In this document: one piece after another, positions 39,906 to 43,921 of the stretch
Layout of the letters: each line of letters opens with the position of its first letter
How positions within the stretch are numbered: the stretch's first letter is position 1
NCBI GenBank assembly: GCA_963817955.1
Contig: CAWFQK010000004.1
Location: forward strand, 1,152,001-1,216,000
Reading direction: 5' to 3'
From: an uncultured Gemmatimonadaceae bacterium
GTDB lineage: Bacteria; Gemmatimonadota; Gemmatimonadetes; Gemmatimonadales; Gemmatimonadaceae
DNA length: 64,000 nucleotides
Notes under the pieces: generated by a model
Database searches by the model: none
Seen by the model: only the letters and a program-made list of their open reading frames with translations
What the model was told of the DNA's origin: nothing
Made by a program: the position numbers and the translations under genes

Positions 39906-40358
39906 TCACTCTGACACGGTGTAGCGCACCTGCACATCAGCGGTCGCGACCGCGACCGTGCCGAAGAGGGGTCACCGCCGCTTGAAACCTTCGATGAGCG
40001 CGGCGGCTCGCGAGGCGTCCGTGCCGAACAGCGTGAACTCGACCTGCACGCTGTTGAATGTCGTGAAGTCGGTGCGCACTTGCTTCGCGCGATCGACCCC
40101 GCCGCGAATCTGCACCGCAACGCCGCGTAACGGCACGCCCTGTTCGCGCGCGAGCACCGGCACCAGCTCGGCACCGCAGGCGGCAACGGCGGAGAGGAAG
40201 ACTTCGGTCGGCGTGACTTCCTCGCCGGGGCAGCCGTTCTGCTCCGGGCCATCGATAATGAAGTGGTGGTTACGCGCGCCGCACAGCACCCGTCCAAACA
40301 CGTCAGTGGACCGGGCGGTGGCGGTGTACTCGCGAAGCGTGGGTGTCGGAGTCGTCAT
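39906..40358 (-). CDS. OsmC/Ohr family protein, probable selenoprotein (in-frame TGA at 39972-39974 read as Sec)
   Basis: P.E.FLSAVAAC first Cys; read-through gives FKRR-U-PLFGTVAVATADVQVRYTVSE*, supplying the conserved second C-P position; hairpin follows the TGA. Confidence 0.85.
39937..39964 (-). promoter_or_regulatory. Bacterial SECIS-like element
   Basis: mRNA UGA-CCCCUCU-UCGG-CA-CGGUCGC-GGUC-GCGACCG-CUGA: 7-bp perfect upper stem with a GGUC loop 20 nt after UGA. Confidence 0.75.
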
Positions 40359-40534
40359 GGCGGGAGGACGTTTGCACAGTTCAGGGCAGCCTGCCTCATA
40401 ATACGTAAGTGGCGCCCGGGCTTTCGGCTATGCCCCACTGGTCGATAGCCGAACGGCAGCCGATAGTCCGCCCCCAGCGAATGCCTCTCCCAAACCGTAG
40501 GTTTAGTAGCTCTTCCTCTCCCCTACTCCATAAT

Positions 40535-43500
40535 ATGCGTCGAATCACCCCGATCCTCGCCGCGGCGCTCGCGCTGGGATTCGCCCAGTTCGCGGCCGGC
40601 CAGCTGCCCCTCCCTGCCGACTCCGTTCTCGTTCGCTCCCTGGCATTTCGTTCGATTGGACCCGCTGTCATGTCGGGCCGCATCGTCGATGTGGCCGTGA
40701 CGGATTCCAAGATTGCCCGCGGCCACATTGGTAACGTCATCTACGCCGCGGCGGCAACGGGTGGCGTCTGGAAGTCCACCAATGCCGGCGTGTCGTGGAC
40801 ACCCGTGTTCGACTCGGTGCGCACCGGTTCCATTGGCGCGGTGGCCGTGGCCCCATCGAATCCTGACATCGTATGGGTTGGCACCGGCGAATCGAACAAC
40901 ATGCGCAGCTCCTCGTGGGGCACCGGCGTCTACAAGTCGATCGATGGCGGACGCACCTGGTCGAGCGCCATGCTCCCCAAGTCGCAGCACGTTGGCCGTA
41001 TCGTCATCGATCCGCGCGACCCGAACGTGGTGTACGTCGCGGCGCTTGGTCCGCTCTGGACGTCCGGGGGTGAGCGTGGTCTGTACAAGACCACCGACGG
41101 GGGAAAGACGTGGACGAACACGAAAGAGATCAGCAAGTACACGGGATTTGCCGAGATCGTGATGGATCCGTCGAACCCCGACGTGCTCTATGCGGCGGCG
41201 CAGGAGCGTGAACGGAAAGAGTACGGCTTTCTGCCCGCGGGCCCGGAGAGCGGCATCTACAAGACGATCGACGCGGGGAAGACGTGGACGCATCTCACGC
41301 AGGGCCTGCCAACCGGCGACATCGGCCGTATTGGCATGAGTGTTTGCACATCGCGCCCGAATGTGGTGTACGCCATGATGCACGCCAATGCGCCGATGAA
41401 CGGTCTCTATCGCAGCGATGACGCCGGAAGCAGTTGGCGCCTGGTGAACGACCAGAACGGCACGGCATGGTACTACAGCCAGGTGCGCTGCGACCCGACG
41501 GACCCCGATCACGTGGTCACGCTCAACGCGGCGTCGCGTGAATCGCACGACGGCGGCAAGACGATGCAGCCCTTTGCCGCGGGCGGTGTGCATAGCGATC
41601 ATCACGTGCTCTGGTTCAACGACGACAACCCACAGCACATGATCCTGGGCGGCGACGGCGGCCTGTACATGACGTGGGACGCCGGGCGCACCTGGGATCA
41701 CGTCGAGAGCATTGTCGCCGGCCAGTTCTACACCGTGGCCGTGGACGATGCGCAGCCGTTCTACAACGTGTATGGCGGCCTGCAGGACAATCAGTCGTGG
41801 GGAGGGCCGAGCCGGACGCGCAATGCGTTCGGGCCGACGAATGCCGACTGGTTCCGTATGGCCGGCGGCGATGGCTTCTATGCCGTGCCGGATCCGCGCG
41901 ACTTCAATTACGTCTACGCCGAATCGCAGACCGGGGGCGTCGTGCGCTACGATGCGCGCACCGGGCAGCAGAAGAACATCAAGCCCGTGCCAAAGGCGGG
42001 TGAGAGACTGCGCTACAACTGGAGCGCGCCAATCCTGCCGTCGCGTCTCGACGCCAAGACGGTGTACATGGCGGCGAACGTGCTCTTCCGCTCGCCCGAT
42101 CGCGGCGACACGTGGGAAGCGATCAGCCCCGATCTCACGCGCAATATCGACCGCAACATTCTGCCGATCCGCGGCGCGAGGCCTGATTCCACGGCGCTCG
42201 GCCGGAACGAAGGGACGGCGGAGTTCAGCAACATCACGACGATCGATGAGTCGCCGTTCCGCGCGACCCTGCTCGCGGTCGGCACCGACGACGGCCTGAT
42301 CCAGGTGACGCGCGACGGCGGCAAGACGTGGACGAGGTCTGACAAGTTCCCCGGCGTGCCAGACACCACGTACGTCAGCCGAGTGTCGTGGTCCAAGGCG
42401 AACGAGGGTACGCTGTACGCGACACTCGACGGCCATCGAAGCAATGACTTCAAACCGTACGTGCTGAAGAGTGCCGATTACGGCAAGACGTGGACGTCGA
42501 TCGCGAGCAATCTCCCCGACGGCGGTTCCGTGCAGGTGATTCGCGAGGATCCGCGGCAGGGCAACCTGCTGTTCGCCGGCACCGAGTTCGGTGTGTACTT
42601 CTCCATCGACGCGGGCGCGAAGTGGACGCAGCTCAAGAGCGGGCTGCCGGGCGTTCCGGTGGACGACATCCAGATCCAGGCGCGAGCGAACGATCTGGTA
42701 CTCGGCACGCACGGACGCGGCATCTACATTCTGGACGACATCACGCCACTCGAGCAGCTCGCGAAGGCGAAGGAATCGACGGTCGCGTTTGTCTATCCCG
42801 TTCAGGACGCGCTGCTCTTCCAGCCAAACGGGAGCCGCACCTCCGGAATGGGTACGCGTGGCTTCGCCGGACAGAACCCTGATCCGGGCGCGCGCATTTC
42901 ATATTTGCTCAAGGACGTGGCGCCTGGCGCGAAGGTGTCGCTGTCGATCCTCGATGCCAGAGGCACAGTCGTACGCGAGCTCCCAGCGAGCAAGACGGCG
43001 GGACTCTATCGCACGATGTGGGACATGCGTGTCGGCCCGCCGCTCACTGGACCGGTGGACACGCTCGCGTTGCAGAACGGTGGTCGCGCGGGTGGTCGCG
43101 GTGCCGCTGGTGGTGGTGGTGGTGGTGGTGGTGGTGGTGGATTTGGTGGCGGCCGGGGCGGCGCCGGTGATCCGACGTTCCAGACGATTCCTGGCCGTTA
43201 CGTCGCGCGCCTCACGATCGCACCGACGACGGGTACGCCGACGGTGCTCGAGCAGTCGTTCAACCTGACGAAGGATCCAATGGTCGTGCTGAGCGAGACG
43301 GAGCTCAAGCAGCTCTACGCGTTCCGTCTCGACGTCGTCAGCGCTCAGCGTTCGTTACGCGAGAAGCAGGCACAGCTCGACACGGCGCAGCGTCTCTATG
43401 CGGCCGCGAAGCGCGCCGCCGATACATCGGGCGCAAAGGTGACGCCCGCGATCAAGGCGCAGCTCACCGCCGTTGAGAAGGAGCTGGCGGACATCACGCA

Positions 43501-43921
43501 CGAAATTGGCGCAGCACAGGGCGCGGGACGCGGCGGACGTGGCGGCCCCCCGGCCGGCGGTGCTCCTGCCACCAACGCCAGCGCACCTGCCGGCCGCGGT
43601 CGCGGCGCCAGCGCAGTCCAGGCGGGCGCGCCAGCCGCCGGGCGTGCTACAGGCGCGGGAGCCGGAGCCGGAGGCGTGACTGACGAAGAGCAGAATCCCA
43701 CCGCACCAGCCGCGCCGCAGAACATACAGGCGAGACTCGGCACAACGACGGAAATGCTCAACGTACCATTCAACCCGAGTCCCGCGCAGAAGAAGACGCT
43801 ACAGACCGTACCCGCCGAGCTGGCGAAGCAGAGCGAACGTGTGAAGAAAGTGACGAGCGATCAGCTCCCAGCTCTCATCAAGGCGTTGAAGGACGCGGGG
43901 GTTGAGGTCAAGCAACTGTAG
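40535..43921 (+). CDS. Secreted VPS10/BNR-repeat beta-propeller protein
   Basis: RSIGPAVMSGRI; many S.D.G.TW BNR repeats; GGLQDN; C-terminal helical and Gly/Arg-rich region. Confidence 0.9.
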   Translation: MRRITPILAAALALGFAQFAAGQLPLPADSVLVRSLAFRSIGPAVMSGRIVDVAVTDSKIARGHIGNVIYAAAATGGVWKSTNAGVSWTPVFDSVRTGSIGAVAVAPSNPDIVWVGTGESNNMRSSSWGTGVYKSIDGGRTWSSAMLPKSQHVGRIVIDPRDPNVVYVAALGPLWTSGGERGLYKTTDGGKTWTNTKEISKYTGFAEIVMDPSNPDVLYAAAQERERKEYGFLPAGPESGIYKTIDAGKTWTHLTQGLPTGDIGRIGMSVCTSRPNVVYAMMHANAPMNGLYRSDDAGSSWRLVNDQNGTAWYYSQVRCDPTDPDHVVTLNAASRESHDGGKTMQPFAAGGVHSDHHVLWFNDDNPQHMILGGDGGLYMTWDAGRTWDHVESIVAGQFYTVAVDDAQPFYNVYGGLQDNQSWGGPSRTRNAFGPTNADWFRMAGGDGFYAVPDPRDFNYVYAESQTGGVVRYDARTGQQKNIKPVPKAGERLRYNWSAPILPSRLDAKTVYMAANVLFRSPDRGDTWEAISPDLTRNIDRNILPIRGARPDSTALGRNEGTAEFSNITTIDESPFRATLLAVGTDDGLIQVTRDGGKTWTRSDKFPGVPDTTYVSRVSWSKANEGTLYATLDGHRSNDFKPYVLKSADYGKTWTSIASNLPDGGSVQVIREDPRQGNLLFAGTEFGVYFSIDAGAKWTQLKSGLPGVPVDDIQIQARANDLVLGTHGRGIYILDDITPLEQLAKAKESTVAFVYPVQDALLFQPNGSRTSGMGTRGFAGQNPDPGARISYLLKDVAPGAKVSLSILDARGTVVRELPASKTAGLYRTMWDMRVGPPLTGPVDTLALQNGGRAGGRGAAGGGGGGGGGGGFGGGRGGAGDPTFQTIPGRYVARLTIAPTTGTPTVLEQSFNLTKDPMVVLSETELKQLYAFRLDVVSAQRSLREKQAQLDTAQRLYAAAKRAADTSGAKVTPAIKAQLTAVEKELADITHEIGAAQGAGRGGRGGPPAGGAPATNASAPAGRGRGASAVQAGAPAAGRATGAGAGAGGVTDEEQNPTAPAAPQNIQARLGTTTEMLNVPFNPSPAQKKTLQTVPAELAKQSERVKKVTSDQLPALIKALKDAGVEVKQL

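Follow-up and report, generated by a model that had tools for sequence, protein, structure and literature searches.

Here we describe a gene in a 64,000-nucleotide (nt) stretch of DNA from an uncultured Gemmatimonadaceae bacterium (GenBank assembly GCA_963817955.1, contig CAWFQK010000004.1, positions 1,152,001 to 1,216,000 of the forward strand; the whole stretch is referred to as the window, and positions count from its first letter). We predict that this gene, at 40358-39909 on the reverse strand, encodes a 150-residue selenoprotein of the OsmC/Ohr fold, with an estimated probability of about 0.88. Selenocysteine (Sec, U) would almost certainly be inserted at an in-frame UGA, codon 129, and comparison with homologues places the gene in a widespread soil-bacterial subfamily with predicted Sec at the resolving-cysteine position. 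The initial annotation of the window, made from its letters without database searches, had proposed that this TGA encodes Sec in a product of 150 amino acids (aa). The proposal is now supported by a column of TGA and Cys codons among homologues, a coding signature in the tail behind the UGA, a conserved hairpin and the presence of Sec machinery.

Under translation table 11, the open reading frame (ORF) spans 40358..39972 (-) and gives a product of 128 aa with the C-terminus ...IEGFKRR-TGA. When TGA is read as U, 21 further codons (PLFGTVAVATADVQVRYTVSE) follow FKRR-U before the frame closes at a second TGA, and the remainder of the gene is free of frameshifts and other stops; the N-terminus, MTxPxxTLREY, is common to the window protein and its homologues. 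The initial annotation had placed the ORF stop at TGA 39974-39972 after FKRR and the end of the open frame at 39906, and its coordinates and sequences were all correct (Table 1).

A protein search returned 2925 relatives, and among the best 120, which were examined for the residue at the codon-129 column, 73 were full-length with Cys (GFKRR-C-PLYGTV), 46 ended exactly at GFKRR and one carried Trp. Around this column, the full-length Cys forms read GFKRRCPLYGTV. At the DNA level, 87 loci were examined, seven from 301 genomes of the same phylum and 80 from a collection of species-representative genomes; the codon was TGA in 81, TGC in five and TGT in one, and the homologues carried Cys, never a sense codon for Trp or Gly. 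The initial annotation had suggested looking for Cys at the TGA position of OsmC homologues, and it is found there in these six Cys codons against 81 TGA, as well as in the C-P Cys of an aligned Ohr structure (PDB 9jxc; see below). An end of the homologues at this site, which it had named as grounds for giving up Sec, is not borne out, as the tail is conserved as protein. Truncation by standard pipelines, which it had also foreseen, is evident from the 46 relatives above, which include the window gene's own database protein (P0004, 128 aa long), and the entries sourced from NCBI/ENA among them are likewise 128 aa. Separately, a metagenome entry of 152 aa (P0005) has Trp at the Sec column, which most likely stems from a TGA-form gene called with a TGA=Trp code and illustrates a further route to mis-annotation.

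The substitutions in the tail after the UGA show a coding pattern. In all 81 TGA-form loci, the frame past the TGA is open for 18-26 codons and carries the conserved tail PLYGTVAVAT-x-DV-x-V. Third positions at codons 130-131 and 140-144 have entropies of 1.0-1.8 bits, with first and second positions nearly fixed; the third position of codon 133 has 0.95 bits, and at codon 132 (Tyr/Phe) the second position varies about as much as the third. Genome-wide, TGA closes 1231 of the 2013 open frames of at least 400 codons and is the commonest stop; with TGA as the genome's principal stop, a reassignment of the code plays no part.

Table 1. Coordinates of the predicted selenoprotein gene and its elements in the window, with the Sec machinery of the same genome.
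Feature	Position	Strand	Details
Complete coding sequence (CDS), predicted 150-residue OsmC/Ohr-fold selenoprotein	39909..40358	(-)	ATG 40358-40356, predicted Sec = residue 129; translation with TGA=U
In-frame UGA, codon 129, U-P motif, second active-site Cys position	39972..39974	(-)	homologue column, Ohr 9jxc alignment, Sec machinery
Candidate selenocysteine insertion sequence (SECIS) hairpin within CDS	39941..39958	(-)	5' arm 39958-39952, loop GGUC 39951-39948, 3' arm 39947-39941; conserved core, inner 6 bp, 39957-39942
Read-through tail, residues 130-150 (PLFGTVAVATADVQVRYTVSE)	39909..39971	(-)	last helix and last strand of fold
True stop codon, also TGA, without SECIS-type hairpin behind	39906..39908	(-)	read from sequence
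Cys61 codon, first active-site Cys, central helix (peroxidatic position in Ohr/OsmC)	40176..40178	(-)	invariant in 66/66 full-length sequences; helix 50-73 of model
selA	same contig as window		545.3 bits, over cutoff
selB	same contig as window		312.5 bits (346.5 with C-terminal piece), over cutoff
selD	same contig as window		376.1 bits, over cutoff
tRNA-Sec	same contig as window, adjoining selD		73.8 bits, over cutoff

A conserved hairpin behind the UGA

The RNA behind codon 129 contains the hairpin CGGUCGC/GGUC/GCGACCG, with its stem 13-14 nt and its loop 20 nt past the UGA. The same hairpin and loop distance had been given in the initial annotation and can be read directly at 39958-39941 (-). 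Across the genome, 17 of 119,348 TGA trinucleotides precede a 7-bp Watson-Crick stem with an NGUN tetraloop at 11-19 nt, and on this count the hairpin after the UGA is more than chance.

We compared the element across 80 distinct TGA-form sequences in an ungapped alignment (alignment A3). The six inner pairs are formed in all 80 sequences, and the seventh, outer pair in 49. Pair 24/39 is G-C in 72 sequences, A-U in five and C-G in three; pair 25/38 is G-C in 59, A-U in 13 and G-U in eight; pair 26/37 is U-A in 69 and U-G in 11; and the three loop-proximal pairs are invariant. Compensatory changes are thus present at 2-3 hairpin pairs, and RNAalifold independently predicted the same 6-bp hairpin. 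Two-sided changes numbered 24 alignment cells, compared with 5.2 +/- 1.8 in shuffled alignments (0 of 500 reached 24), and in a register control 94.5% of cells paired in the native register, falling to 19-57% when the 3' arm was slid by 1-3 columns. The compensation is visible in the protein as well, where Val135 is replaced by Ile together with Thr139 by Val (ACG-AUC...GCG-GUC). Synonymous third positions of the hairpin codons 135-138 have 0-0.5 bits, as against the 1.0-1.8 bits at codons 130-131 and 140-144 outside it, and these frozen third positions therefore point to an RNA constraint laid over the coding constraint.

The loop follows the pattern RGUY, with GGUC in 71 and AGUU in nine of the 80 sequences and the middle G and U invariant. 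Within it, loop positions 1 and 4 (A3 columns 30/33; window 39951/39948) covary perfectly, as G...C in 71 and A...U in nine, the AGUU forms coming from Burkholderiales, Chloroflexia, some Acidobacteriota and a delta-proteobacterial metagenome-assembled genome (MAG). A pair between positions 1 and 4, closing a loop of 2 nt, is sterically unlikely, and the covariation may instead reflect contact with SelB or shared ancestry.

In bacterial SECIS elements, the apical loop lies 16-37 nt from the UGA, according to a passage in PMC10778597, and is small and contains a G, according to one in PMC1088965. The hairpin has this published geometry, with 20 nt from UGA to loop and a tetraloop with an invariant G. 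At the six Cys-form loci checked, an intact hairpin of the TGA-form kind was found in none; one of them (L028) retains four of the six core pairs, and another (L032) has a different palindrome with a 2-nt loop. Our search of the open-access literature found nothing that combines SECIS, GGUC and SelB. As a tool for finding selenoproteins, a genome-wide scan for TGA followed by a similar hairpin was tried and set aside: it gave 36 matches, the flanking translations of which, the OsmC gene apart, look like noise from GC-rich non-coding frames, and it missed selD.

Selenocysteine machinery and distribution of the gene

The genome (4.53 Mb in nine contigs, 94% complete) was scored for Sec machinery against curated cutoffs. 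The initial annotation had implied that selABCD should be encoded elsewhere in the genome, and selA, selB, selD and tRNA-Sec were indeed all recovered over these cutoffs (Table 1). The selD gene (loci L010/L015; region C4:449343-450454 (-)) has an in-frame TGA of its own at C4:450424-450422, inside the SelD-family match, in the motif RCAG-U-AAKLG, which we take to be the usual Sec/Cys site of SelD; tRNA-Sec lies directly beside it at C4:449343-449436. SelD is probably a selenoprotein itself, so that the organism would make at least one other selenoprotein. The region past the selD UGA folds unlike the OsmC hairpin, and an organism-wide SECIS consensus shared by the two genes could not be derived, as their UGA regions fold differently. 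Among other TGA-form genomes, selA was found in seven of seven tested, over the cutoff in six. In one of the genomes (G271), selA lies in two adjacent pieces (233 and 264 bits; G271:C9:116519-117698), a split that is a frameshift or an assembly error.

Going by their labels, the majority of the TGA-form loci belong to Gemmatimonadaceae, and others to Acidobacteriota (Ca. Angelobacter, Terriglobia, Thermoanaerobaculia), Chloroflexia, Burkholderiales, Propylenella, Ca. Binatia, a delta-proteobacterial MAG and the isolate Anaeromyxobacter soli SG29 (L067). The same TGA occurs in 80 other loci from independent assemblies, the labels of which cover at least seven groups of phylum level. In the phylum of the window itself, 7 of 301 genomes had the gene, all of one family, four with TGA and three with Cys, including a Cys form from the same genus (G131).

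The Sec/Cys label was mapped onto a quick maximum-likelihood tree (151 sequences, midpoint root) for which the Sec/Cys site itself had been masked; no direction of change is claimed. The label changes at least eight times on this tree, with three changes forced by well-supported branches, and interconversion has therefore happened repeatedly. With the SECIS inside the CDS, the recoding unit as a whole could be passed between phyla in a single piece.

Fold, proposed chemistry and competing explanations

The window protein matches Pfam OsmC (PF02566) over residues 45-135 with 38.9 bits, above the cutoff of 27.5. An AlphaFold2 model built on 66 full-length relatives (predicted local distance difference test score, pLDDT, 88.2; predicted template modelling score, pTM, 0.83) places Cys61 on a long helix, 50-73, and residue 129 at the break between helices 115-128 and 130-138; the tail forms the helix 130-138 and a final strand, 141-149, with pLDDT of about 95. 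A Foldseek search of the PDB yielded 51 matches with E <= 1e-3; those listed are without exception OsmC/Ohr entries, with template modelling (TM) scores of 0.50-0.65, among them 1lql, 2egt, 6mjn, 2onf, 1ml8, 2pn2, 1ukk, 1nye, 9jx6, 1n2f and 1zb9. Their high root-mean-square deviations would fit a monomer model of a domain-swapped dimer. By sequence, the best PDB match was the uncharacterised protein 2pn2 (E = 0.0015), and Ohr 9jxc (E = 0.27) aligned its C-P Cys to the TGA position and its helix Cys to Cys61. The term "peroxiredoxin-like" used in the initial annotation holds as a description of function only; the fold is that of OsmC/Ohr proteins, not that of peroxiredoxins.

In Ohr, as described in passages of PMC5962072 and PMC5384416, the peroxidatic Cys (Cp; Cys61 in Xylella Ohr) is located on the central helix and the resolving Cys (Cr) is Cys125, while a catalytic Arg is found in the loop between strands 1 and 2 and a Glu about 10 residues before Cp. 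In the window protein, R23 lies between strands 8-17 and 24-28 (the beta1-beta2 loop), E52 at the helix start and C61 on the helix, and none of R23, E52, C61, U/C129 and P130 varies among the 66 full-length sequences. The window protein has the Ohr layout of Arg, Glu and Cp, and the UGA therefore falls at the resolving-Cys position. R23 and E52 are probably the equivalents of Ohr Arg19 and Glu51, judged from sequence position and secondary structure rather than from superposition. Further invariant residues are H32, N41, D89 and R90, and H31 and Cys43 (in NGCPGE) are nearly so; these six are consensus features of the subfamily that are not shared with the Ohr chain 9jxc. Cys43 (codon 40230-40232) is a third Cys, replaced by Phe in L024 and by Ala in L067 (alignment A4), and sits in a low-confidence loop of the model (37-41/31-50) that matches the Gly-rich loop of Ohr near the active site.

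From these features, we propose the following course of events. A ribosome that reaches UGA129 would meet the hairpin 13-14 nt downstream, bound by SelB-GTP-Sec-tRNA(Sec), and Sec would be delivered to the A site, after which translation would run on for 21 more codons and end at the real stop, a TGA that no hairpin follows. The resulting Sec129, at the C-P position (Cr in Ohr/OsmC), would be paired with the invariant Cys61 of the central helix (the Cp position), and the protein would dimerise as other OsmC/Ohr proteins do. A hydroperoxide could then be reduced by Cys61, activated by Arg23 and Glu52, or by Sec129 itself; the oxidised residue would condense with its partner to give an intramolecular 61-129 selenenylsulfide in place of the Ohr disulfide, and a thiol donor would reduce this bond. 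Judged from its sequence, the protein is thus most likely a hydroperoxide reductase that cycles via a 61-129 selenenylsulfide. A more specific version, which we hold only tentatively and think somewhat less probable than its negation, is that the subfamily runs the Ohr/OsmC cycle with altered roles, either with Sec129 as the attacking and Cys61 as the resolving residue, or with Cys61 attacking and the selenenylsulfide being recycled faster or by another reductant.

Explanations that dispense with Sec have to account for codon 129 in other ways. The least probable is that a Cys codon was lost, either by a nonsense mutation that left a pseudogene or by a mistake in sequencing or assembly. This would need a single base change from TGC or TGT to TGA, and the same-genus genome G131 does have Cys; the idea is effectively refuted by the same TGA in the 80 other loci and at least seven phylum-level groups noted above, together with the co-conserved hairpin, and by the intact remainder of the gene. 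Hardly more probable is that UGA129 is a real stop that yields a truncated, OsmC-like product of 128 residues, with the hairpin serving as a signal in transcription or translation, for instance a terminator or a stability element. Gene callers do give exactly this 128-aa product, and the hairpin is GC-rich and located just past the UGA, but the 21 codons behind it are conserved as protein, with third-position wobble outside the hairpin and an open frame in 81 of 81 TGA-form loci. The tail also makes the last helix and strand of the model (pLDDT about 95), Cys-form homologues translate through the same region, the scan for terminator-like T-runs gave 0 sites, and a 128-aa product would lose the second active-site residue. 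Read-through without Sec, by near-cognate insertion of Cys or Trp or by local reassignment of TGA, has little more in its favour: P0005 has W at this position, which probably reflects a TGA=Trp gene call, while TGA closes 1231 of 2013 long frames and ends this very gene, the Sec machinery is complete, a hairpin of the SECIS type follows the codon, and the homologue column contains Cys, never sense-codon Trp or Gly.

A more serious alternative, unlikely in our estimate and yet well ahead of those just discussed, is that the protein is a genuine selenoprotein and not a peroxidase, with Cys61 and Sec129 serving another redox or transfer role, such as disulfide or persulfide reduction or the handling of sulfur, selenium or metals, and with Sec129 as the primary nucleophile. 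The very low scores with the curated Ohr models (18.8 and 21.3 bits), the uncharacterised best PDB sequence match (2pn2), the subfamily's own invariant H32, N41, D89 and R90 together with the nearly invariant H31 and Cys43, and the lack of a conserved neighbour gene hinting at a reductant across the 87 loci would all suit such a role, and a poorly characterised third Ohr/OsmC group does exist, according to a passage in PMC5384416. However, all 66 sequences have the Ohr-type quartet of Arg, Glu, Cys and Cys/Sec without exception, whereas the "Ohr-like" group of uncertain activity lacks Arg and Glu, as the same source states, and the fold matches OsmC/Ohr peroxidases throughout.

Several points weigh against a selenium-dependent hydroperoxide reductase of this kind. 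The insertion of Sec at codon 129 is a prediction from sequence and comparison. A global minimum-free-energy fold over the 86 nt that surround the site gains no stability over shuffled sequences (z = -0.19), and since a single-sequence fold is weak evidence, the argument rests on the comparative data. An Rfam scan of the hairpin gave no family match, the best score being 16 bits against gathering scores of at least 46. A 5-bp lower stem with an AC bulge can be drawn in the window sequence and was rejected, as three of its five pairs are unpaired in 46-67 of the 80 sequences; because lower stem and bulge are not conserved, we take the element to be a plain short hairpin (6-bp stem and tetraloop) without a bulged nucleotide. 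The selA gene also occurs in the Cys-form genomes G131, G277 and G094, and its co-occurrence therefore does not discriminate within the subfamily. On the functional side, the protein scores far under the Ohr models (18.8 bits against 88.85 for TIGR03561; 21.3 against 240 for NF052637) and is not a member of either, a peroxidase activity is suggested only by the conserved residues, and Sec at the resolving-Cys position of Ohr is unusual, which makes a simple transfer of the Ohr mechanism uncertain.

Gene neighbourhood and relation to known systems

In the window, the gene stands alone on the (-) strand with unrelated genes to either side: it lies between a GH18 gene and a sortilin/BNR gene, and its neighbours further include an M1 peptidase gene. 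The largest cluster of flanking ORFs comprised 7 of the 87 loci, and neither an operon partner nor a reductant can be proposed from conserved neighbours. A promoter and terminator scan at the gene gave no terminator (0 terminator-like T-run sites) and one promoter-like site, on the opposite (+) strand. Of the public sequencing runs listed for the locus, none is of RNA type, and four of DNA type contain small shares (0.06-0.18), which do not bear on expression. In the sortilin/BNR-repeat neighbour (40409-43921 (+), 1170 residues), a long stretch of low complexity is rich in Gly (GGRGAAGGGGGGGGGGGFGGGRGG...) and the C-terminal region is rich in Ala and Gly; only about 50 nt separate the predicted GTG start of this neighbour from the start of the OsmC gene on the opposite strand. 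At two loci from one genus (L025:1501-1947 (-) and L026, in genomes G171 and G271), an ORF with a GGCFWC motif, presumably resembling methionine sulfoxide reductase A, follows within a few codons of the TGA-form OsmC stop; this arrangement, possibly a local oxidative-stress gene pair, was not seen in the window.

The systematic truncation to 128 residues removes an active-site residue together with the last helix and strand, and a curated subfamily model would put right many entries that are labelled Gemmatimonadota, Acidobacteriota, Chloroflexota, Pseudomonadota (Burkholderiales), Myxococcota and Binatota. Among the loci examined, 81 have the TGA form and six a Cys form, which suggests that soil bacteria commonly rely on selenium in their defence against peroxides; in the accessible text of a 2026 selenoprotein review (PMC13188914), the terms "soil", "Gemmatimonad" and "Acidobacteri" occur 0 times. 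Among the papers listed in our search of the open-access literature, none is about a Sec-containing Ohr, none is relevant to gemmatimonad selenoproteins, and those that combine OsmC with selenoproteins give only the UxxT family; the supplements of selenoproteome surveys could list the subfamily. As far as the open-access text searched goes, Sec at the second Cys and the breadth across soil bacteria appear new in print, while OsmC-like selenoproteins as a kind are known. The SECIS, if correctly identified, is only an 18-nt hairpin that codes for T-V-A-V-A-T, a compact module for recoding whose versions can be compared between phyla.

The SECIS of E. coli fdhF has a bulged nucleotide and a GGUC loop, the latter the same as in the window hairpin. 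Like bacterial elements of the fdhF type, the window hairpin lies in the ORF directly past the UGA, at a distance of 20 nt that falls within 16-37, and has a small apical loop with a conserved G; unlike them, it has no conserved bulge or lower stem, its conserved part being the 6-bp stem and the tetraloop.

With Ohr, represented by Xylella fastidiosa Ohr and by PDB 9jxc/9jx6, the window protein shares the predicted fold and a pair of redox residues about 60-68 positions apart, of which one is on the central helix and the other, further on, belongs to a C-P motif; also common to both are the Arg of the beta1-beta2 loop and a Glu that precedes the helix. It differs in its predicted Sec in place of the resolving Cys, in the near-invariant extra Cys43 and in an HHF motif, and the overall similarity is marginal. 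Selenium would sit at the position that has the resolving role in all characterised Ohr/OsmC members, and in a fold so well studied as a peroxidase this would offer a clean system for examining what selenium contributes.

OsmC-like selenoproteins were predicted in 2005 by Zhang, Fomenko and Gladyshev from the Sargasso Sea metagenome (three sequences, COG1765, motif UxxT; as given in a section of PMC1088965), and this UxxT family is the sole OsmC entry in the accessible parts of the 2022 and 2026 selenoprotein catalogues (PMC9312934, PMC13188914). The NCBIfam model NF041052, "OsmC-related (seleno)protein", gives the window protein 30.8 bits, under the 95-bit cutoff, and a search of the whole genome with the model found no member over the cutoff (best 24.1 bits). 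Genuine members were present in 2 of 301 genomes of another phylum (L122, 161.5 bits; L123, 148 bits), each with one TGA, which lies at the first Cys (LAF-U-LLT and GF-U-MFS), the second position being Cys. When aligned, at about 18% identity, their Sec falls on the column of the window's Cys61 and their Cys on that of Sec129. The window protein is not a member of NF041052, because it scores under the cutoff and, at the position of the first Cys, lacks the Sec of a UxxT/S motif on the central helix. The two families are alike in the PF02566 fold, bacterial origin, a SECIS within the ORF, Sec for one of two active-site Cys and coexisting Cys homologues; they differ in that NF041052 has Sec at the first (peroxidatic) Cys, and the window protein has Cys first and predicted Sec second (RR-U-PLF). 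If the subfamily does run the Ohr/OsmC cycle with altered roles, the OsmC fold, taken together with NF041052, would have recruited selenium in independent events at each of the two members of a single redox pair. This would be a natural experiment on the contribution of Sec at the one position and at the other, with a direct comparison available in the sister family, where the peroxidatic position has Sec.

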